A program made the position numbers and the translations under genes. Positions 26,968 through 63,338 of a stretch of DNA of 64,000 nt are shown here, one piece after another. Position 1 is the first letter of the stretch; every line of letters begins with the position of its first letter. The DNA comes from Deferrisomatales bacterium (lineage in GTDB: Bacteria; Desulfobacterota; Deferrisomatia; Deferrisomatales; JACRMM01): positions 4,783-68,782 of the forward strand of contig JAWSUI010000002.1 of assembly GCA_033551855.1 (NCBI GenBank), in the 5' to 3' direction. Under the pieces are notes generated by a model, which made no database searches, was not told the DNA's origin, and saw nothing but the letters and a program-made list of their open reading frames with translations.

Positions 26968-27570
26968 TCACTGGGGATGGGCCGACAGGCGGGCGTGCAG
27001 CGGGCTCCTCCGGGGAAAGTGGCTGACGAGAAAGTCCATCTGATCGGAGAGGATCCGTCTCCCCTGGAGGTACACGTATTCGGCGTGGGAGGGGGTGAAG
27101 GGCACGGCCAGCAGCTCCATCCCCGCCTCCTCGGGGGTCCGGCCCGACTTTCCGTGGTTGCAGCGCTTGCAGGCGGTGACGACGTTGCTCCAAGTGTCCT
27201 GCCCCCCTCGGCTGAGGGGGGTGACGTGGTCCCTGGAGAGATCACACGCCGGGAACCGCTGGCCGCAGTAGAGGCACAGGTGGGCGTCGCGTCCGAAGAG
27301 CGTCGGGTTCGAGAGGGGCGGCGCATGGGCGCGCGCCGCCCGGCGGTGGGCGCGCCGCCCGCCCACGGTGGCAAGGACCGACCGCACCTCGATCACCGTG
27401 CGCCGCCCCGAGCGGGCATTCGTGCCGCCGCGGAGGCGGTAGAGCAGGGTTCCGAGAGAGTAGGCCACGCGCTCGAGGTGGTGCAGGCGCACCGCCTCCT
27501 GGTAGTCGATCCAGTCCAGCGGCACACCCCCCACATCGACCCGGAGCACCTGTTGGTCCAGGCCGTACAC
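26968..27570 (-). CDS. HNH endonuclease (~200 aa, COG1403-type with N-terminal extension)
   Basis: ORF 26968-27930 trimmed to the GTG at 27570-27568, with GGAGG 5 nt upstream. HNH core CLYCGQ...DHVTPLSRGGQDTWSNVVTACKRCNHGK. Confidence 0.85.
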   Translation of the reverse strand: MYGLDQQVLRVDVGGVPLDWIDYQEAVRLHHLERVAYSLGTLLYRLRGGTNARSGRRTVIEVRSVLATVGGRRAHRRAARAHAPPLSNPTLFGRDAHLCLYCGQRFPACDLSRDHVTPLSRGGQDTWSNVVTACKRCNHGKSGRTPEEAGMELLAVPFTPSHAEYVYLQGRRILSDQMDFLVSHFPRRSPLHARLSAHPQ

Positions 27571-27644
27571 GGCGCCTCCCCGGAAAGGAAGAGGGTCCGA
27601 CGCGACGCTTGTGGGTTGTAGCAGTTTCGGCCGAGGGAAGCAAA

Positions 27645-28138
27645 GGGTTCCGGCAGCCCCGGATTCCCCGCCTGCCCGGCAAGCGGAGGCCGGGAGCCCC
27701 TGCGTTCCGCCCCGCCATCCGCGGCGACGGGCAGGGGTGTCCCCGGAGGCCCCGGTGCGCCGGGCGTCACCCGTTTGCGTCGGGCCGGGAGGGTCGGTCG
27801 ATGCGGTACGGGGCTGCTCTCCGGTGCTCCCGACACCCGCTCCAAGACGTGGCGGCGGGTTCCGGCAGCCTCGGATTCCCCGCCTGCCCGGCAAGCGGAG
27901 GCCGGGAGCCCCTGCGTTCCGCCCCGCCATCCGCGGCGACGGGCAGGGGTGTCCCCGGAGGCCCCGGTGCGCCGGGCGTCACCCGTTTGCGTCGGGCCGG
28001 GAGGGTCGGTCGATGCGGTACGGGGCTGCTCTCCGGTGCTCCCGACACCCGCTCCAAGACGTGGCGGCGGGTTCCGGCAGCCTCGGATTCCCCGCCTGCC
28101 CGGCAAGCGGAGGCCGGGAGCCCCTGCGTTCCGCCCCG
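27645..28138. repeat. Near-perfect tandem direct repeat, 212-bp unit x 2.33 copies
   Basis: Copies at 27645-27856, 27857-28068 and 28069-28138. The only difference is C at 27659 versus T at 27871 and 28083. Period verified by reading landmark positions (t at 27648, 27860, 28072). Confidence 0.97.
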
Positions 28139-28492
28139 AGATCTGCGGCAATGGAAAGGGCGGTGCCCCAGGCAAAGGGTGCTGGACCGAGCCGTTCTGC
28201 CTCGGGTTCTGTCCTTCGGGGGGTGCGGTGGGCGGCCGCCCTCCACGGGCTCCCCTGACCTGCCACGGAAATGTGGTTCTTCCGGTAGACGACCGGGTGG
28301 GCCCGCCCACTCCGGCAGACGATGCCGGGCAGTACGGCAGGTGCGCTCCCGCGCCGCATCCGGAATCCTTGCGGCATCGCGGCTCCCGAAACGGCTGCTC
28401 CCGTCGAGCGGCCGTCCGCCTGCGCGGCCGGGCCCACCCGGTCGTCCCTGGACACGAGTGCCCGGTCATTTCCCGGATGAACCGGAAATGTG
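28139..28492. repeat. Diverged continuation of the same array (rest of copy 3 and a fourth ~215-bp copy)
   Basis: The copy-3 tail keeps blocks such as atcYgcggc, ccgttYtgcStcggg and gctccc..gac. Copy 4 starts at 28275 with ggttcttccggtagac (unit: ggttccggcagcc) and keeps CCGCC...CCGGCA-loop-TGCCGG. Copies 3 and 4 both end in cggaaatgt (28266-28274, 28483-28491). Alignment was done by eye. Confidence 0.7.
28288..28446. repeat. 18-bp perfect inverted repeat (GACGACCGGGTGGGCCCG / CGGGCCCACCCGGTCGTC) separated by 123 nt
   Basis: The arms at 28288-28305 and 28429-28446 are exact reverse complements. Confidence 0.9.
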
Positions 28493-28532
28493 ACGGTGGA
28501 TCCAGGGCGTCAGGACGCGGGGCGGGCCCGGA

Positions 28533-28562
28533 TTGACAGCCCCGAAACCGCCTGACTAGTAT
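28533..28562 (+). promoter_or_regulatory. Sigma70-like promoter candidate for the dynamin-like gene
   Basis: Consensus TTGACA at 28533-28538, an 18-nt spacer, and TAGTAT at 28557-28562. It lies ~58 nt upstream of GTG 28620, which has AAGGAG 4 nt upstream. Confidence 0.45.
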
Positions 28563-28619
28563 GATCCCCTTTCGACCTGCTGTGCCTACCGGGGCAGCGC
28601 GGGGTCTCCAAGGAGCAGG

Positions 28620-30791
28620 GTGAGGCGCGTGGACGGAGGAGGAGCAACCGTGGGCGACCGCGCGAGGTCGCTTCTGTTCTTGGCGGGCGCGGTGCGGGAG
28701 CTCCTGGGGGCCCAGGGGGAGCCGGTGCCTCCGTGGGAGGCCCGTCTCCAGGGCCTGGGGGGGGACGGGGAACGATTCCGTATCGCCGTGGCCGGCACGG
28801 TCAAGAGCGGCAAGAGCACCCTGGTGAACGCTCTCATCGGACGCGACGCGCTCAAACGGGGAGCGGGTATCGTCACCTCCCTGGTGACGCGGGTGAGGCC
28901 GGGCAAGGAGCTAATCGCTCGGATGCGCCTCAAGGGCTGGGCCGAGGTCAACCGGGAGGCGACGGACGCTGCGCTCTTCTTGGGGGGCGGGGAGGACGGG
29001 CGCCCCGTGGACCTGAGGTCGGCGCGGGACCGGGAAGCCCTGGCCCTGGCCCTGGCCCGGTTGGGCGAGGAGGTGTTGGGCGAGGGGGGGTTCTTCGACA
29101 AGAACGTGGCCCTGCTGCGGGCGTACCTCGGGGGGCAGGCCAGGGTGGCGGACCTCGTGACCGATCAGCCCCGCATGGTGGAATTTGGCCCCGACGGCTT
29201 CGAGCGGCATCGGGAGTTCGCCGGTCACGACGCGCTGGCCGCCTACGTGGACGACCTGGTCCTGGAGATCCCGGGCCTGCCCTTCCCCGACACCTGCGAG
29301 CTCGCGGACTGCCAGGGGTATGACTCCCCGAACCCGCGGCACATGGAGATGGTGCAGCAGTACCTGCTCGGCGCCCACGTCGTGGTGTACGTGGTCTCCA
29401 GCCGCGTGGGGCTGCGCGAGGCGGACTTTCGCTTTCTGCGGGACATCAAGGCCTTGGGGCTCGTGGAGTCCACGCGTTTCGTCCTCAACGCGGACCTGGC
29501 CGAGCATGGCAGCGCCGAGGACCTGGCGGAGTTGGGCCGCCGCGTGGGGGAGGAGCTCGAGCACCTCGTCGGGCAGGTGCCGCTCCACACCTTCTCGGCC
29601 CTGCGCGCCCTGCTCCGGGGGTTGCGGGAGAGGGGCGAGCCCCTGAGCCGCCGGGACGAGCTGCTCCTCCAGGTGTGGGCCGAGTCGTCGGCCTCGGCCG
29701 AGGACGAGTACCCCCGCTTCCTCCGGGCCCTGCAGGACGCGGCCGGACCCCAGCGGGAGCGGCAGCTCGAAAACGCCCGGGCGGACTTGGTTCGCTTGGC
29801 CACCGGCGCCCTGCGCTCCCAGGTCGGGTCGGCCCTGGTCCTGGCGGGGAAGGAGGCCCAGGACCTGGCGGCAGAGCGGCAGGCCCTTGGGGCCGCCAAG
29901 GACCGGGTGCAGGGGTCACTGGCGGGCTTCGAGAGTGCCCTGGGCGGCGTGTCCGGATCCCTCAAAGCCGAGGTGTTCCGTAAGGTGGACGGGTGCTTTC
30001 ACCCCTCCGGGGGGGATCTGGCCGTGGAGGTGCTGACCCATGTCCGCGGTCTGCAGCCCCCTCCCGCCGCCCTCGAGGTCACGGAGAGGACGAAGCTGCC
30101 GCGACAGATGGCCCGCATCTACCACGAGCTTCGGGCCGCCTTCCAGCGGTACAAGGTCGAGGTGGCGAACCCGCGGGCGGTCGATCGGATCCGGAGGCTC
30201 TGGGCTGAGGCGAGCGGCGCACTCGGGGAGGCCGCCCAGCCGCCGGCGGAACTCCTGGTGCAGAGCGTCGAGGCCTACAGACGGGAGGCCGAGAGCCTGG
30301 GGATCGCCGTGCCTCCCTTGGACCTGCCACCTCTGGACCCCTCGATCGGGCGGACGTCGATCCCTCTCTTCTCCGCGGTGACCTATGCTCCCGGCCAGTT
30401 CGCCACCGACCGGGTTTTGTCCTTCGCGGGGCAGTGGACCCGCAAGCTGGCCACGGGGTGGGCCAAGCGCCTGCTGGGCAAGAAGGAGCGCACGAGCTTC
30501 GCCCGGTCCCTCCTCTCGGACGGGGCCGAGGCGGTCCGGGAGCTCCTGGCGGAGGAGGCGCGCTCGAATCTGCTCCACTACAACGAGCAGGTGAAGCACC
30601 AGGTGCTGGGAAAGAGCCTCGACTCCCTGGCCGCGGCTTGGGCCGAGGGCTACCGGGAAACCGTGGAGGCCCTCGTGGTGGATCTGGACCGGCTGCTGGG
30701 TCTTCTCGACCGGTCCGCGGCCCTGCGGACCGAGCTCGTCCCTCGCCTGCAGGAGATCCTGGGGGCGCTGGAGGGGTTGGAGTCGTCGTGA
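28620..30791 (+). CDS. Bacterial dynamin-like GTPase (dynamin family protein)
   Basis: 723 aa. P-loop AVAGTVKSGKSTLVNALIG, G2-like GIVTS, G3 DCQGYDSP. The long alpha-helical C-terminal two-thirds is typical of the BDLP stalk/paddle. Confidence 0.8.
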   Translation: MRRVDGGGATVGDRARSLLFLAGAVRELLGAQGEPVPPWEARLQGLGGDGERFRIAVAGTVKSGKSTLVNALIGRDALKRGAGIVTSLVTRVRPGKELIARMRLKGWAEVNREATDAALFLGGGEDGRPVDLRSARDREALALALARLGEEVLGEGGFFDKNVALLRAYLGGQARVADLVTDQPRMVEFGPDGFERHREFAGHDALAAYVDDLVLEIPGLPFPDTCELADCQGYDSPNPRHMEMVQQYLLGAHVVVYVVSSRVGLREADFRFLRDIKALGLVESTRFVLNADLAEHGSAEDLAELGRRVGEELEHLVGQVPLHTFSALRALLRGLRERGEPLSRRDELLLQVWAESSASAEDEYPRFLRALQDAAGPQRERQLENARADLVRLATGALRSQVGSALVLAGKEAQDLAAERQALGAAKDRVQGSLAGFESALGGVSGSLKAEVFRKVDGCFHPSGGDLAVEVLTHVRGLQPPPAALEVTERTKLPRQMARIYHELRAAFQRYKVEVANPRAVDRIRRLWAEASGALGEAAQPPAELLVQSVEAYRREAESLGIAVPPLDLPPLDPSIGRTSIPLFSAVTYAPGQFATDRVLSFAGQWTRKLATGWAKRLLGKKERTSFARSLLSDGAEAVRELLAEEARSNLLHYNEQVKHQVLGKSLDSLAAAWAEGYRETVEALVVDLDRLLGLLDRSAALRTELVPRLQEILGALEGLESS

Positions 30792-31902: not shown

Positions 31903-32337
31903 TCAGAGGCAGAGCAGCTCTCTGGTGCTTTCCGGCCGCCGGCAGGGAATGCCCATATCGCTCAGGAGCTTGGCCAAGCGCCCGTCCAACGTCACCACGG
32001 TGCAGCCGTGACGCCGGGCCAGCGAGGCATACAGGAGGTCATGAACGGGGTGATTCCTCGAGATGGCTTCCGCGAGAGCCTCTTCGGCCAGCTCGTGGTC
32101 GGGCACCGCGCGGTCATACAGCCCGAACGAAGTTTCCAGCAACGAAACGGCTTCCTCGGCGGACAGGTCACCTGCCCGCACGTATTTCCGCAGGGCGTTC
32201 GCCACCTCGGAATGGAAGAGCTCCGGGACGAGCACCACCAGGCACTCGTCCAGCAGGTCCACAACCGAGGACGCGCGGCGTCCCGGCAGAACCACCTCGA
32301 CGGCGGCCGAAGCGTCCAGTACGGCCCTCCGTATCAC
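31903..32337 (-). CDS. vapC: PIN-domain ribonuclease toxin VapC
   Basis: 144 aa with N-terminal acidic VLDAS and conserved later acidic residues. GTGA overlap with the upstream antitoxin gene. Confidence 0.8.
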   Translation of the reverse strand: MIRRAVLDASAAVEVVLPGRRASSVVDLLDECLVVLVPELFHSEVANALRKYVRAGDLSAEEAVSLLETSFGLYDRAVPDHELAEEALAEAISRNHPVHDLLYASLARRHGCTVVTLDGRLAKLLSDMGIPCRRPESTRELLCL

Positions 32338-32579
32338 CGGTCCCGATCCTCGCGCACGAGGTCCTCCGGCAGAGCGGAGACTCGGCGAGTCTCCGCCGCC
32401 GACAGGCGGCTTCGGATGTCCGCCAGGAGCTTCCTGCGCCGCTCGACCGCCTGAAGGTCCGGGATCCGGCGCAGCTCCACGACCGCCTGCTGCGCCAGGC
32501 TCCGGTTCTCGCTGCGGGCGCGAAGGGAAAGGGCCTCGTACACGTCTTCCGGCAGGTCGCGGATTTGAAGAGACGGCAT
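32334..32579 (-). CDS. vapB: RHH-type antitoxin (VapB/FitA-like)
   Basis: 81 aa. MPSLQIRDLPEDVYEALSLRARSENRSLAQQAV is a typical Arc/MetJ ribbon-helix-helix N-terminus. ORF 32334-33692 trimmed to ATG 32579 with GGAGG upstream. Confidence 0.8.
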   Translation of the reverse strand: MPSLQIRDLPEDVYEALSLRARSENRSLAQQAVVELRRIPDLQAVERRRKLLADIRSRLSAAETRRVSALPEDLVREDRDR

Positions 32580-32612: not shown

Positions 32613-32641
32613 ACCATAGCGCATGCAGATTGCATGCGCAA
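32613..32641 (-). promoter_or_regulatory. vapBC promoter candidate with embedded perfect palindrome (operator candidate)
   Basis: Minus strand reads TTGCGC (32641-32636), a 17-nt spacer, then TATGGT (32618-32613). The palindrome GCGCATGCA-gat-TGCATGCGC at 32619-32639 fills the spacer. Confidence 0.45.
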
Positions 32642-33038
32642 CAGACGATCTTGTCGGGAACAGGCGGTTCAAGCTCCCCGTGGCGGTGACGCATGTGGCA
32701 GGGCTTCTCCCCAGCCCTCCGCCTGCGAGCCTTGCCCATCTGATGGCGGGCAAGGGGATCCTCCTGCGCTGAGGGCGACGGCCTCGGCGGCAAACTTTCA
32801 CCCCCAGTCCATTCCGCGTTCGCTCCCAGTCCGCTTCGGCCCGGACGTTCTCTGCAAACTCGGGCAGTTGCGCAACTTCACTTGCCCGTTTCTTCCCCGT
32901 TTGTCCCCGATGACTCCGATGGAGTTCGTCTCGGCGGGGAAGCTCCGTTCGGCGTTTCGAGCGGCGGACCTTGAGGTATCCTGTTCTTCGGAGCAGAGTC
33001 GTCTTCCTGCCGCCGGCAACCACGACCCGGAGCCAGCC

Positions 33039-34322
33039 ATGCCTGCCCACCTCGTCTCTCTCTTCTTCCTTCTCGCCGCGACGTTGCCTGTTGCCGGCTG
33101 CAGTCGGGACTCCGGCCAGAGGGAGCGCTCGCCGCCGCAGCGCATCGCCGAGCTGCCGCGCGCGCTCAGCGTTGCCGAGCACGAGGTGGTCGCCCGCTCG
33201 AACGAGCTCGCGTTCGACCTGCTGCGGGAGACCTACGCCCGCGAGACCGAGAGGCCCAACGTGTTCCTCTCGCCGCTGAGCGCCTCCATGGCATTGGGCA
33301 TGGCGCTGAACGGGGCTGCGGGCGAGACGTTCGAGGCGATGCGGGCGACGTTGCGGTTCGAGGGGCTCACCCAGGAGGAGATCAACGTCGCCTACCGGGA
33401 CCTCGTGGAGCTTCTGCTCGGCCTGGACCCCGGGGTCGAGCTGCTCATCGCCAACGCCGCCTGGGCGCGGCAGGGCTGGCCCTTCGTGCCCGAGTTCTTC
33501 GCGACGATCGAGACCTGGTTCGACGCGCGGGCGCGGGAGCTCGAGTTCGACGAGCCGGCCGCCCTCGACGCGATCAACCGGTGGGCGGACGAGCAGACGG
33601 GGGGGCGGATACCGAAGGTGCTCGACGAGATCGGGCCCGAGCACGTCCTCTTCCTGCTGAACGCGGTCTCCTTCCGGGGGGACTGGACCCACCGCTTCGA
33701 GCGGAGCCGGACGCGGCCGGGGCCTTTCACCCTAGCCGACGGGACGCAGGTGGAGGTCCAGCGCATGAGCGGCACGCTCGGGGCGGGGGTGCGCCAGGTG
33801 CAGGGCGGCGTGCAGATCGGCGAGCTCCCGTACGGCGGCCAGGCGTTCGTCATGACCCTCGCGCTTCCGCCGCCGGGCGGCAGCCTGGCCGCGTTGGTCG
33901 CCGGCCTCGACGCCGGGACCTGGTCGCGCTGGACCGAGGGTTTGCCGGAGGACTACGCGGCGGCCGAGATCGAGGTCGGCCTGCCGAAGCTCGAGCTGAG
34001 CTACGAGAGGGTCCTCAACGACGTGCTCACCGCCCTCGGCATGGGCGTCGCCTTCGACGAGAACCTGGCCGACTTCTCCCGCCTCCTCGACCTGGCGCCG
34101 CCGCTCAACGCCTACCTCGACTTCGTCAAGCAGAACACCTACCTGCGCGTGGACGAGGAGGGGACGCAGGCGGCGGCGGTGACGACTGTGGGGGTCGGCG
34201 TCACGTCGGCGCCGCCCTCCTTCGTCGTGGATCGGCCCTACCTGCTCGTAATCCGCGAGCGCTTGAGCGGGACGATCCTGTTCCTGGGGGCGATCGGGGA
34301 TCCGCGGGACGGCGGCGGGTAG
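33039..34322 (+). CDS. Serpin-family protease inhibitor, predicted lipoprotein
   Basis: ORF 32634 trimmed to ATG 33039. Signal peptide with lipobox LPVAGC. Serpin core with the inhibitory-type hinge EEGTQAAAVT and the C-terminal FVVDRPYLLVIRE motif. Confidence 0.85.
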   Translation: MPAHLVSLFFLLAATLPVAGCSRDSGQRERSPPQRIAELPRALSVAEHEVVARSNELAFDLLRETYARETERPNVFLSPLSASMALGMALNGAAGETFEAMRATLRFEGLTQEEINVAYRDLVELLLGLDPGVELLIANAAWARQGWPFVPEFFATIETWFDARARELEFDEPAALDAINRWADEQTGGRIPKVLDEIGPEHVLFLLNAVSFRGDWTHRFERSRTRPGPFTLADGTQVEVQRMSGTLGAGVRQVQGGVQIGELPYGGQAFVMTLALPPPGGSLAALVAGLDAGTWSRWTEGLPEDYAAAEIEVGLPKLELSYERVLNDVLTALGMGVAFDENLADFSRLLDLAPPLNAYLDFVKQNTYLRVDEEGTQAAAVTTVGVGVTSAPPSFVVDRPYLLVIRERLSGTILFLGAIGDPRDGGG

Positions 34323-34753: not shown

Positions 34754-34830
34754 TGGTGGGCGAGGCGGGATTCGAACCCACGGCCTCAGGTTCCGGAGAC
34801 CTGCGCTCTATCCAGCTGAGCTACTCGCCC
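34754..34830 (-). tRNA. tRNA-Arg (anticodon CCG), CCA encoded
   Basis: Reverse complement is GGGCGAGTAGCTCAGCTGGATAGAGCGCAGGTCTCCGGAACCTGAGGCCGTGGGTTCGAATCCCGCCTCGCCCACCA. It has a 7-bp acceptor stem, a CAGGT/ACCTG anticodon stem with loop CTCCGGA, and a GGTTCGAATCC T-arm. Confidence 0.95.
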
Positions 34831-55831: not shown

Positions 55832-56332
55832 TCACCCGCCCAGGGGGGAGAACCGCCCCCAGGCCCCGAGCTGCCGGTAGGCCTCGTAGACCGCCACCCC
55901 GACGGCCGCGGAGAGGTTGATGCTGCGCACGGGGCCCCAAATGGGGATGCGGCAGCAGGCCTCCGGGTGGGCGGCCAGGAGCGCGGGGGGAAGCCCGCGG
56001 GTTTCGGGGCCGAAGACCAGGCGGGCGCCCCGGGCGTAGGGGGCCTGGTCGTAGGGACGGCCCACCCGGGCCGAGAAGTAGAACACCGGCCCGTCCCCCG
56101 ACGCGGCCAGGGCCTCCGGGAGACCCGGGTGGTGCCGCACCTCCACGTGCTCCCAGTAGTCGAGCCCCGCCCGCTTGAGGTAGCGGTCGTCGGTGGAAAA
56201 ACCAAGGGGGTGCACCAGGTGCAGGGTCGACCCGGTGGCGGCGCACAGGCGGGCCACGTTGCCCGTGTTGGGGGGAATCTCCGGGTTCACCAGGATCACG
56301 TGCAGGCGCAGGGGCGCCGGGCTCACAGTCAA
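55832..56332 (-). CDS. trmL: tRNA (cytidine/uridine-34 2'-O)-methyltransferase TrmL (SpoU family)
   Basis: LHVILVNPEIPPNTGNVARLCAATG and the C-terminal SINLSAAVGVAVYEA knot motifs. TTG start overlaps the stop of the upstream gene. Confidence 0.88.
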   Translation of the reverse strand: MTVSPAPLRLHVILVNPEIPPNTGNVARLCAATGSTLHLVHPLGFSTDDRYLKRAGLDYWEHVEVRHHPGLPEALAASGDGPVFYFSARVGRPYDQAPYARGARLVFGPETRGLPPALLAAHPEACCRIPIWGPVRSINLSAAVGVAVYEAYRQLGAWGRFSPLGG

Positions 56333-59085
56333 CGGTGTCTACCCCCCAGCCAGTCCCGGAGGTAGCGCCCCGTGGGGCCCAGGGCGCGGGCGGCCACCTC
56401 GTCCGGTGTGCCGGCGTCCACCACCGTTCCCCCCTCCTGGCCGCCCCCTGGCCCCAGGTCGATCACCCAGTCCGCCTGGGCCACCAGGTCGAGGTTGTGC
56501 TCCACGACCACCACCGTGCCCCCCCGGTCGATCAGCCGGTGCAGCGTGGCGGCCAGGCGGGCCACGTCCTCGGGGTGGAGCCCCGTGGTGGGCTCGTCGA
56601 GCACGTACAGCACGTCCCGAGTGGCCCGGCCCAAGAGCTCGGAGGCCACCTTGAGGCGCTGGGCCTCCCCCCCCGACAGGGTGTTGGCCGGCTGGCCCAG
56701 GACCAGGTAGCCCAGCCCCATCTCGGCCACGACGTCCAGGGGTCGCCTCACCGCGTCGATGCCGGAGAAGAGCGTGAGCCCCTCGTCCACCGTCAGTCCC
56801 AGCACCTCGTGGATGGAACGGCCACGGAAGCGAACCGCGAGCACCTCGGGGCGGAACCGCCGCCCCCCGCAGCCCTCGCAGGGGACGTACAGGTCCTCGA
56901 AGAAGAGCATCTCGAGCTGCTCGAACCCCGTACCCTTGCAGCGTTCGCACCGCCCACCGGCGACGTTGAAGGAGAAGTGGCCGGGAGTGAGCCCCAGCCG
57001 GCGGCTGGCCGGAAGGGCCGCGAAGGCGTCGCGCACCGCAGTGTACGCGCCCAAGTAGGTCAAGGGGATCGACCGCGGGGTCCGCCCCATAGGTGACTGG
57101 TCCACTTCCCGCACCGCCTTGGGGAAGGGGGCTCCCCTCGCGGTCACCCCCTCCAGGCTGCCCCGCAGCCCCCGGGATTCCACCGCCGCCACCAGGGTCT
57201 CTGCGACCAGGCTCGACTTCCCCGAGCCCGAAACCCCGGTGACGCAGGTCAGGGCTCCCAGGGGGAAGGCGGCTTCGATCCCCCGGAGGTTGTGGAGGCG
57301 GCACCCGTGCAGCACGAGGTGGCCCCGGGCCGGCCGTATCGGCCGCAGGCGTGGGGCCGCACCCCGGCGTGCGAGGTGGCTGCCGGTTGGGGTGGGTGCG
57401 CCCTCCAGGTCGCGGGGATGGCCCTCGTACAGGACGCGCCCGCCGCGGCTCCCGCCCCCGGGCCCCAGCTCCACCGCGTGGTCGGCCCTGCGGATGAAGA
57501 ACAGGTCGTGCTCCACCGCGACCACCGTGTTGCCCCGGCGGGCCAGGTCGGCGAGAACCTCGGTCAGCACCTCCACGTCCTGGGAGTGGAGTCCGACCGT
57601 GGGCTCGTCCAGCACGTACAGGGTCCCGGCCAAGCGGTGCTGGAGCTGGAGGGCGAGCGCCGCGCGCTGGGCCTCTCCTCCAGAGAGGGTCCGGGATGCC
57701 CGGTCCATGGTCAGGTAGTGGAGGCCCAGGCGCAGCAGGGTGGCCAGCTTGTCTTCGACCCGCCAGAGGATATCGACGGCACGCTCCCCCAGCTCCGGCG
57801 CCAGGGTGCCCACCCAGCGGGCGAGGTCTGCCAGGGGCAGGGCACTGGCCTCGGCGATGGAGCGCCCCCCCACCGTGACCGCCAGGGACTCGGGCCGCAG
57901 CCGCGCGCCGCGGCAGGCCGGGCAACGGCGCGGCGACCGGTAGCGGGCCAGGAACACCCGCACGTGCATCTTGTACCGTTTGCCTTCCAGATACTGGAAG
58001 AAGTCCTTTACCCCCTCCAGGGGACCCTCCCCTTCCCACACCTGGCGCCGGGCCACGGGGTCGAGCGCGGCCCAGGGGACGTCCAGGGGGATGCCCAGGG
58101 AAGGCGCCTCGCTCAGGAGCTGCTCCTTCCACCAGTGACTGGACGGGCTCTCCCAGGGGGCTACGGCTCCGCCGGCCAAGGTCCGCCCGGGGTCGGGGAT
58201 CACCTTGGCCTCGTCCCACTCCAGCACGGCCCCGAACCCGGTGCAGGTGGGACAGGCTCCCAGGGCGTGGTGGAAGCTGAAGAGGACGGGTCGGGGCTCG
58301 GGCAGATCCCGGTCGCATTCGTGACAGCGCCGCCGGGTGCCGAAGGCCAGGGAGGGAGCAGCCTCGGGACGAACCCTCGCCGCGCCCCCGCCGAGGCGAA
58401 ACGCCTCGTCCAGGGCACGCGCCAACCGGGCCGGGTCCCGGGAGCGGATGCGCTCGAGCACCAGCGCCCCGTCGGGCCCCGGCAGGGGGGGGAGCTCCCC
58501 GGAGTCCAGGCGGTGGACCTCGCCGGAGAGCCGTACCCTCGCAAACCCTCGGGTCACGAGGGCACGGGCCCACCCCTCCCGAGGCAGCCCTTCCAGACGA
58601 TCCAGGGGGATCTCTACGTCCACGGGGTCCGCAGGGTGGCGGTCCCGGATCTCTCGCGCTGCCGCCTCGGCGCTCCAGGCCCGGCCCGGCCGTCCGCACT
58701 GGGGGCAGCGCACCGTGCCGGCGGTGGCGAACAGCAGGCGGAAGAGGTCATAGAGCTCGGTGGCCGTCCCCACGGTGGAGCGGGCCGAGCGCACGGCGTT
58801 GTGCTGGGCCAGGGCGACGGCGGGGCGCACGTTCTCCAGCCCGTCCACCTGGGGGCGCGGCATCTTTTCCAGGAGCAGCCTCGCGTAGCTGGGAAGCGAT
58901 TCCAGGAACCGCCACTGTCCCTCGGCGAAGAGCGTGTCGAAGGCGAGGCTGGACTTGCCGGAGCCGGAGACGCCGGTGACCGTCACCACGACGTCGTGGG
59001 GGATCTCCAGGTCGAAGCCCGTCAGGTTGTGCTGTCGAGCTCCCCGGATGCGCAGGGGGGCTGGGGGGCTGGGGGGCGGACGCAT
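56329..59085 (-). CDS. UvrA-family ABC ATPase (divergent UvrA paralogue)
   Basis: ORF 56329-59769 trimmed to ATG 59085. Two Walker A sites (GVSGSGKSSLAFDT and GVSGSGKSSLV), two LSGGEAQR signatures and several CxxC zinc modules. Highly conserved UvrA blocks are altered (AEGQWRFLESLPSYARLLL; VRPAVALAQH). Confidence 0.85.
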   Translation of the reverse strand: MRPPPSPPAPLRIRGARQHNLTGFDLEIPHDVVVTVTGVSGSGKSSLAFDTLFAEGQWRFLESLPSYARLLLEKMPRPQVDGLENVRPAVALAQHNAVRSARSTVGTATELYDLFRLLFATAGTVRCPQCGRPGRAWSAEAAAREIRDRHPADPVDVEIPLDRLEGLPREGWARALVTRGFARVRLSGEVHRLDSGELPPLPGPDGALVLERIRSRDPARLARALDEAFRLGGGAARVRPEAAPSLAFGTRRRCHECDRDLPEPRPVLFSFHHALGACPTCTGFGAVLEWDEAKVIPDPGRTLAGGAVAPWESPSSHWWKEQLLSEAPSLGIPLDVPWAALDPVARRQVWEGEGPLEGVKDFFQYLEGKRYKMHVRVFLARYRSPRRCPACRGARLRPESLAVTVGGRSIAEASALPLADLARWVGTLAPELGERAVDILWRVEDKLATLLRLGLHYLTMDRASRTLSGGEAQRAALALQLQHRLAGTLYVLDEPTVGLHSQDVEVLTEVLADLARRGNTVVAVEHDLFFIRRADHAVELGPGGGSRGGRVLYEGHPRDLEGAPTPTGSHLARRGAAPRLRPIRPARGHLVLHGCRLHNLRGIEAAFPLGALTCVTGVSGSGKSSLVAETLVAAVESRGLRGSLEGVTARGAPFPKAVREVDQSPMGRTPRSIPLTYLGAYTAVRDAFAALPASRRLGLTPGHFSFNVAGGRCERCKGTGFEQLEMLFFEDLYVPCEGCGGRRFRPEVLAVRFRGRSIHEVLGLTVDEGLTLFSGIDAVRRPLDVVAEMGLGYLVLGQPANTLSGGEAQRLKVASELLGRATRDVLYVLDEPTTGLHPEDVARLAATLHRLIDRGGTVVVVEHNLDLVAQADWVIDLGPGGGQEGGTVVDAGTPDEVAARALGPTGRYLRDWLGGRHR

Positions 59086-59136
59086 GGGCGGTGGGATTAT
59101 GATCGCTACCCCCGAAATGCTCAAGGCGGGGTTGAC

Positions 59137-59796
59137 ATGGCTCGCCGGGGCGATAAACTGACGCGGACTGTTGCCCTGGGAGGAGTCTTGGATCAGGACT
59201 ACTCGAAACGGTTCTACGCTGCCCTGGCCCCCGCCTACGATTGGGTCTTCGGGCCGGCCCTCGAGAGGGGCCGGCGCGACGCAGTGCGGCTGGTCCGTCC
59301 CGGCGAGCGGGTCCTGGAGATGGGAGTCGGCACCGGGCTCGGGCTGCGCCACTACCCGAGCGGATGCCATGTGGTGGGGGTGGACATCTGCCGCCAGATG
59401 CTCCGGAAGGCCCGTTGGCGGGCCTTGGTGGAGGGAAACGGGAGGCGGATCGAGCTGCGCTGCGCCGATGCCACGCGGCTGGACTACCCGGACGGGGCCT
59501 TCGACGCGGTCGTAGCACCCTACGTCGTGACCACCGTCGGGGAACCCGATCTCCTGTGCCGCGAAATGCGCCGGCTGTGCCGCGTCGGGGGCCGGGTCAT
59601 CGTCGTGAGCAACACCCGCGAGGGGGGGTACTACGGCGCAGTCAAATCCCGCCTCTCCCCCTTGATGGAGAGGGTCGGCTTCCGGACCGACCTGGATGTC
59701 GAGGGGGTCCTCCGGGGCGCCGGCCTCCGGCTGCTCGAGGCCAGGAGAGTGCCCCCCTTGAGCATCCACAAGGTGTTTGTGGCCGAACCCGCCTGA
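59137..59796 (+). CDS. Class I SAM-dependent methyltransferase (phosphatidylethanolamine N-methyltransferase-like)
   Basis: Motif I VLEMGVGTG. The N-terminal YSKRFYAALAPAYDWVFGPALERGRR resembles PmtA-type lipid N-methyltransferases (from recollection). ORF 57292 trimmed to ATG 59137. Confidence 0.7.
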   Translation: MARRGDKLTRTVALGGVLDQDYSKRFYAALAPAYDWVFGPALERGRRDAVRLVRPGERVLEMGVGTGLGLRHYPSGCHVVGVDICRQMLRKARWRALVEGNGRRIELRCADATRLDYPDGAFDAVVAPYVVTTVGEPDLLCREMRRLCRVGGRVIVVSNTREGGYYGAVKSRLSPLMERVGFRTDLDVEGVLRGAGLRLLEARRVPPLSIHKVFVAEPA

Positions 59797-59812: not shown

Positions 59813-59849
59813 CGCGGCCGGACCCACCCGGCCGCTTCCCGGATGAACC
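59813..59849 (+). repeat. Short dispersed motif related to 28422-28483 (CGCGGCCGGRCCCACCCGGYCGY ... TTCCCGGATGAACC)
   Basis: 21/24 identity for the first block and 14/14 for TTCCCGGATGAACC. The 28.4-kb copy has a 24-nt insertion between the blocks. Confidence 0.6.
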
Positions 59850-63198: not shown

Positions 63199-63282
63199 GA
63201 GCCCGTGGAGGGAGGCGTCGCGAACGGTCCGGAGGGAAAGGCGCGCCGGAGCGAGCGACGAGCCGGATCAGCCTCCCGTGCA

Positions 63283-63338
63283 GCCCGGCATCGTCTGCCG
63301 GAGCGGGCGGGCCCACCCGGTCGTTTACCGGAAGAACC
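63283..63338 (-). repeat. Solitary copy of the 5' module of the 27.6-28.5 kb repeat (inverted orientation)
   Basis: The reverse complement GGTTCTTCCGGTAAACGACCGGGTGGGCCCGCCCGCTCCGGCAGACGATGCCGGGC matches 28275-28330 at 54 of 56 positions. Confidence 0.9.

Follow-up and report, generated by a model that had tools for sequence, protein, structure and literature searches.

The described systems that come closest to the locus considered here are the bacterial minisatellites (VNTRs), the miniature inverted-repeat transposable elements (MITEs), which are non-autonomous derivatives of DDE-transposase insertion sequences, and the REP/REPIN sequences, repetitive extragenic palindromes that are mobilised by RAYT transposases. 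The REPIN/RAYT (IS200/IS605-type) mode of movement is not known to leave a target-site duplication. The literature that we found on Deferrisoma consists of community surveys only. Our locus belongs to a Deferrisomatales metagenome-assembled genome (MAG), of which one stretch of 64,000 nucleotides, about 70% GC, was analysed (hereafter the window), and it is made up of a 1,049-bp intergenic gap (27571-28619), devoid of coding signature, between two divergent genes encoding an HNH endonuclease and a dynamin-like GTPase. A first-pass annotation made from the letters alone had described most of this gap as an array of four tandem copies, for which structured RNA genes, a multi-site regulatory array or a satellite-like repeat were put forward as explanations. 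From the comparisons presented below it seems quite likely that the gap records a recent and lineage-specific tandem duplication of unconstrained spacer DNA together with the insertion of a mobile element, and that the array is probably neither a set of RNA genes nor a set of regulatory sites. The satellite-like repeat is then the nearest of the three explanations first proposed. The coordinates of all features are collected in Table 1.

Table 1. Features of the HNH/dynamin-like intergenic locus and of the related repeat ends, in window coordinates
Feature	Coordinates	Strand	Description
HNH endonuclease gene	26968-27570	-	200 aa, GTG start at 27570; Pfam HNH_5, 1.1e-16
Candidate HNH promoter	27615-27643	-	TTGCTT, 17 nt, TACAAC; outside the array, single
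Tandem copy A	27645-27856		212 nt; C at unit position 15
Tandem copy A'	27857-28068		212 nt; T at unit position 15; 211/212 identical to A
Tandem copy B	28069-28275		First 70 nt identical to A'; diverged tail; promoter-proximal
Left copy of the putative 10-bp target-site duplication, CGGAAATGTG	28266-28275		Exact match to 28483-28492
MITE-like inverted-repeat element	28276-28482		207 bp; ends GTTC[T/A]TCCGG...GACCGGGTGGGCCCG
Right copy of the putative 10-bp target-site duplication, CGGAAATGTG	28483-28492		10/10 identical
Dynamin-like gene promoter	28533-28562	+	TTGACA, 18 nt, TAGTAT
Dynamin-like GTPase gene	28620-30791	+	Dynamin_N, 5.9e-16
Shorter, more diverged end of the element family	59814-59849	-	nhmmer E=1.7e-7; upstream of a UvrA-like gene
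End of the element family, solo or truncated	63272-63338	-	Matches 28275-28341 over 67 nt (92.5%, E=4e-21)

The gap had been said to hold no credible coding sequence, and this reading stands: GC content by codon position, which shows a strong periodicity in the two flanking genes, is flat over 27600-28590, the third-position signal of the HNH gene stopping near its start codon at 27570, and Pfam had no match for any of the five long ORFs running across the gap. The possibility that the array encodes a repeat protein was rejected on account of the flat GC3 profile, the lack of Pfam match and a 212-nt period that is not divisible by three. The exact 200-aa HNH product is present on two other assemblies (L001 and L002), and the dynamin-like protein is 100% identical to P0001, recorded as a dynamin family protein of Deferrisomatales; the database call of this gene begins at 28650 and gives 713 aa. 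Within the HNH gene itself, the part encoding the N-terminus carries a tandem repeat of 21 nt in 2.1 copies (27326-27371), which is overlapped by a GC palindrome, GGCGGTGGGCGCGCC. Further along the window, 31903-32579 (minus strand) and 32634-34322 (plus strand) hold a PIN/FitA-like toxin-antitoxin pair, assigned from the Pfam marks of the equivalent genes of contig L003, and after it a gene for a bacterial serpin (Serpin, 2e-86); the pair and the serpin gene sit between a radical-SAM gene and tRNA-Arg(CCG).

Both flanking promoter candidates proposed by the first-pass annotation appear plausible, their positions being conserved in related genomes. On the dynamin-like side, TTGACA does lie at 28533, 40 bp past 28492 as had been described, and a promoter scan of 27400-28750 called this site as the only sigma-70-like one (0.0 expected). 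The arrangement ATTGACA-N18-CTAGTATG, or CTAGCAT in place of the latter, is found upstream of the dynamin-like gene in every relative examined (L004, L007, L008, L010-L012 and L014-L017); in the more distant of them, whose proteins are 70-78% identical, it has been kept despite other upstream genes and is the sole part that is shared. The promoter together with part of the 5' leader (GGGTGCAGGGTGAG.CGCGTGGACGG; window 28524-28650) is strikingly conserved down to 70% protein identity. A sigma-54 promoter in the conserved GGAACCCTTTGC block was considered and rejected by direct reading, the GG-to-GC spacing being 8 nt and not 10. The HNH promoter was not called by a simple consensus scan and its assignment is a putative one, consistent with the preservation of the -35 hexamer TTGCTT and of the 17-nt spacing in L004 and L010 (TTGCTT-17-TAAAAG) and with the conservation, in the spacers of the relatives, of the block GCAAAGGGTTCCG that adjoins this hexamer.

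Between these promoters, Tandem Repeats Finder (TRF) reported a single long-period array in the 64 kb, of period 212 and 2.4 copies with 98% match (score 982; 27645-28149), and in 100 shuffles there was no chance match like the array repeat. The first two copies follow an exact 212-bp period and differ at one base only (27659 C versus 27871 T), just as the first reading had it. Its account of the third copy holds as well: the 70-nt heads of A and B are 69/70 identical, after which identity between A and B falls abruptly at nt 70/71 to about 60%. The tail of B (28139-28274) is about 59-62% identical to the unit tail and nonetheless clearly homologous to it, with a global-alignment z of 7.8 against dinucleotide shuffles and of 5.8 in a second comparison. 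Copy B is interrupted near its end by an inverted-repeat element, and once this insertion is removed B is colinear with the spacer of L004. At unit position 15 the three copies read C/T/T, and A' can be read as a hybrid that combines B's head with A's tail. The array comprises three tandem copies and not four: a 212-bp tandem repeat with three homologous copies survives from the original description, and the fourth copy turns out to be an unrelated element. The proposal of an old array that has been partly re-homogenised is in keeping with tails at about 59%, heads at 69/70 and A and A' at 211/212. A CRISPR array was rejected, the units being 212 nt long and abutting without spacers, whereas CRISPR repeats measure about 23-55 nt.

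What had been taken for a fourth, thoroughly diverged copy shows no homology to the unit by global alignment (28275-28492 gives z=1.4 against the unit and z=-0.9 against the third copy), nor was there any BLASTN match between this stretch and the unit. Its ends are inverted repeats directly abutted by the two copies of CGGAAATGTG; an inverted repeat pairs 28288-28321 with 28413-28446 (34 nt, 85%), and as single-stranded DNA the element folds far better than shuffles (z=-5.65). Pfam found nothing in the ORFs overlapping these 207 bp. Two further ends of the same family lie in the 64-kb window, both of them solo (GGTTC[T/A]TCCGG..GRCCGGGTGGGYCCG), and no full second copy was seen: the better preserved one (nhmmer E=1.7e-9) is situated between two convergent genes, and the end at 59849 comes just after a AAAAGGCCTTTTTTT hairpin. 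On account of its inverted-repeat ends, the 10-bp duplication, the lack of ORF and these dispersed family members, 28276-28482 looks like a MITE, i.e., a non-autonomous transposon. It is worth asking whether it might nevertheless be a true, very diverged fourth unit in which the shared CGGAAATGTG marks a conserved unit end and not a duplication, given that the two 10-mers are spaced by 217 nt, near the unit length, and that the start GGTTCTTCCGGTAG loosely resembles GGGTTCCGGCAG. We consider this highly improbable: besides the missing alignment signal, local divergence cannot give 92.5% identity between the first 67 nt and a locus 35 kb away (63338-63272), the inverted-repeat ends abut the 10-mers exactly, and the relatives are without the stretch.

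Among the scanned window ORFs, plasmids, phages, viral contigs and JGI metagenomes there was no autonomous transposon whose ends match those of the element: no transposase was seen among the scanned ORFs of the window or next to the end at 63338, and BLASTN of the whole gap against plasmids and phages, together with viral contigs, returned nothing for the unit or for the element. A first pattern of the element ends had no match in the JGI metagenomes, and a looser one had a single chance match, inside a P-type ATPase gene. That the inverted-repeat motif might be a promoter or an operator was considered, since its copies at 28275, 28483 and 59849 all point towards a downstream gene, and was rejected because the copy at 63338 is located between convergent genes and a target-site duplication is present. 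The gene next to the 59849 end is itself unusual: the 1,146-aa ORF at 56329-59769 (minus strand) has partial UvrA-like/ABC ATPase matches only (UvrA_DNA-bind 4e-11, ABC_tran 1e-14) and may be an atypical UvrA paralogue or an ORF whose start is over-extended. This small family of inverted-repeat elements appears undescribed and could be catalogued with a complete genome.

The origin of the unit is best approached through the nearest relatives possessing the divergent HNH/dynamin pair, L004/5/6 and L010, in which the HNH protein is 82-83% and the dynamin-like protein 80% identical to that of the window; this outgroup of the same synteny amounts to two distinct sequences only. From the HNH start to the dynamin start the relatives have about 410 nt against 1,079 nt in the window, and the difference is accounted for as 2 x 212 + 217 (the element and one copy of the duplication) plus about 28 nt. 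The unit has one homologous segment in them, which is 60% identical to A (z=5-6) and about 201 nt long as aligned, or 215 nt when measured from the GGGTTCCG block to the dynamin -35, and their spacer runs into the same dynamin promoter with nothing that matches the inverted-repeat element. The element is absent from L004 and L010, which present an empty site: when the window is stripped of the element and of one copy of the duplication, both are colinear with it across the insertion point. On these alignments, the unit would be a segment of the ancestral divergent-promoter spacer. No other DNA of the locus is so poorly conserved when L004 and L010 are compared: identity along the unit-homologous stretch is 80-93% (87% overall), against 95% at the third codon positions of the HNH and dynamin-like genes and 97-100% in the promoters and 5'UTRs. 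Likewise, the 70-nt head shares only about 60% identity with its orthologue in L004 and L010, no better than the tail. The HNH gene adjoins the dynamin-like gene only in the species of the window and in the relatives at about 80% identity; in L007, L008, L011, L012 and L014-L017 a dUTPase or another gene takes its place beside the dynamin-like gene, so either the neighbourhood has undergone rearrangement or the subclade has gained the HNH gene.

Closer still is L001 (GCA_047921355.1), a 6.3-kb contig that is 99.6% identical to the window and exactly 212 nt shorter. Its structure is [A][B] followed by the inverted-repeat element, copy A' being missing, with C in both heads, and the differences that separate it from the window are denser in the intergenic DNA (6/627 nt) than in the flanking genes (22/5,956 nt). 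L001 being a fragmented short-read MAG, the difference of one copy may reflect either a collapse or a real polymorphism. The contig stops at the outer end of the element (window 28483); a Logan contig, L002, stops 30 nt into the first copy (window 27674), and L003, another Logan contig of the same run that was found via the dynamin protein, starts inside the element (window 28454). Three independent short-read contigs of the species thus end at the head of a tandem unit or within the element, so that these repeats are points of breakage for short-read assembly and fragment the assemblies of this genome. One may then wonder whether assembly has created the extra copy, the locus being [A][B] in reality, or conversely whether L001 is collapsed and the copy number invariant, and the very positions at which the three contigs break or are shortened speak for such a view. 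It is unlikely all the same, for assemblers usually collapse tandem copies and seldom invent them, a SNP separates A from A' and its T allele is common to B, which makes a coherent recombinant structure, and the protein of the window is on record on a contig of 198.6 kb. At least two copies are present either way, so that our reading is unchanged.

With respect to structured RNA, searches with Rfam at the gathering threshold gave only the tRNA at 34757-34830 in the whole window and, in L001, L004 and L010, only tRNAs and noise, with nothing in the spacers of the relatives. Relaxing the threshold to E<=10 brought three noise matches to the region, of 11-19 bits against gathering scores of 70-104, which answers the Rfam check that the first-pass annotation had suggested. 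The folding of the unit shows no excess over shuffles, be it for the plus strand (z=+0.41) or for the minus strand (z=-0.44). The covariation that had been looked to in aligned homologues is negligible, RNAalifold on A, B and two outgroup units giving terms of -2.5 and -0.12 kcal/mol in a test whose power is low with four saturated sequences. It had further been argued that a hairpin stem kept with a different sequence in the fourth copy pointed to a structural constraint. This argument fails because that copy is not homologous to the unit and the comparison opposes unrelated DNA; such hairpins are moreover common here, perfect 6-bp hairpins with loops of 3-10 nt occurring about 6 times per kb in the window and at least one being contained in 63% of random 218-nt segments. 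In DNA of 70% GC, a hairpin that is conserved with a different sequence is no evidence of structure before homology has been shown.

A tandem array of structured ncRNA genes, each unit being transcribed and processed, would suit a region that is non-coding, GC-rich and capable of many stems. The results just given for Rfam, for minimum free energy on both strands and for RNAalifold nevertheless run against it; in addition, a scan revealed no promoter- or terminator-like site inside the unit, no part of the locus evolves faster than the orthologous segment, and the supposed compensatory hairpin belongs to an unrelated element. Structured RNA was rejected on the fold z-scores and on RNAalifold, and the ncRNA interpretation retains next to no credibility in our eyes.

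Another idea, in favour of which the location of the array between two divergent promoters speaks, is that the heads with their CCCGGC-N8-GCCGGG motif are binding sites for a regulator of the HNH and dynamin-like genes, whose expression would be tuned by the number of copies. The three heads are 69-70/70 identical while their tails differ, and L004, with its single-copy spacer, has a CCCGG...CCGGG palindrome at about the corresponding position. The conservation that this idea calls for is not seen, however: the head is no closer than the tail to its L004/L010 orthologue (about 60% identity), the spacer evolves faster than third codon positions, and one copy suffices in the relatives. Hairpins of this kind are, as mentioned above, common in 70% GC DNA, the abrupt switch of identity at nt 70/71 is what would be expected of a recombination tract, and both promoters are more than 260 nt away from the extra heads. 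A multi-site regulatory array thus strikes us as improbable, and a conserved regulatory array finds no footing in the comparison with the relatives. It could be that the sharp block of 70 nt shared by A and B stems from selection rather than from conversion. A slim chance may be granted to the view that selection keeps the heads identical, either as an array of binding sites of variable number or as a recombination-prone module; if it were true, gains and losses of copies from strain to strain would change the expression of the divergent HNH and dynamin-like genes. Yet the abrupt switch at nt 70/71 argues for a tract of recombination or conversion rather than for long-term purifying selection. 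No regulatory effect of the A/A' duplication would be expected, because it leaves the sequence immediately upstream of both promoters as it was.

Taking duplication and insertion as the preferred reading, a plausible history of the locus can be sketched, in which the succession of the events, the mode of recombination and the neutrality of the array are the inferred parts. The ancestral divergent-promoter spacer would have measured about 410 nt between the HNH and dynamin start codons and would have been enlarged by two kinds of structural mutation. An older tandem duplication of its central segment of about 205-212 nt may have yielded [A][B], the tails of which diverged to about 60% identity, and the first 70 nt of A and B were later made identical, most likely by gene conversion. 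A non-autonomous element of 207 bp would have been inserted near the end of B, generating a 10-bp target-site duplication. Finally, in the lineage of the window, the 70-nt heads, by then identical, may have been the site of one recent event, unequal crossover or replication slippage, that produced [A][A'][B], in which A' would be composed of the head of B (T at position 15) and the tail of A; such an event in the heads is supported by the C/T/T pattern at unit position 15. Since both promoters are single and the sequence beside them has stayed the same, the array most likely evolves neutrally, as a minisatellite-like repeat of apparently varying copy number; what speaks for neutrality is that conservation and signals of structure are both lacking. 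The spacer would thus have grown 2.5-fold by tandem duplication and one MITE-like insertion, which matters little biologically and has its practical value in annotation and assembly.

How, then, does the locus compare with the described systems? Like a bacterial minisatellite or VNTR, it consists of head-to-tail copies with an exact period of 212 nt, the newest of which are near-identical, and it displays an apparent difference of one copy between assemblies that are 99.6% identical, along with a recombinant SNP pattern. It departs from these systems by having only three copies of a long unit, for which assembly collapse is possible, and by the absence of any phase-variation logic, promoter spacing and reading frame being unaffected. 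With REP/REPIN sequences the element shares short GC-rich palindromic motifs, which occur as a hairpin-capable inverted pair and as intergenic singlets. It differs from them in its perfect 10-bp duplication; no RAYT-like gene was seen among the scanned ORFs of the window, and the REP/REPIN reading is less apt than that of a MITE because a target-site duplication is present. A MITE would ordinarily be set beside an autonomous parent and a second complete copy, neither of which was found in the window and the collections searched, the other two members being solo ends. The likeness to a MITE is otherwise as follows: the element is 207 bp long and free of ORFs, it bears terminal inverted repeats and is bordered by a perfect 10-bp duplication, its site is empty in the relatives, and other ends of its family are found within the same 64 kb.
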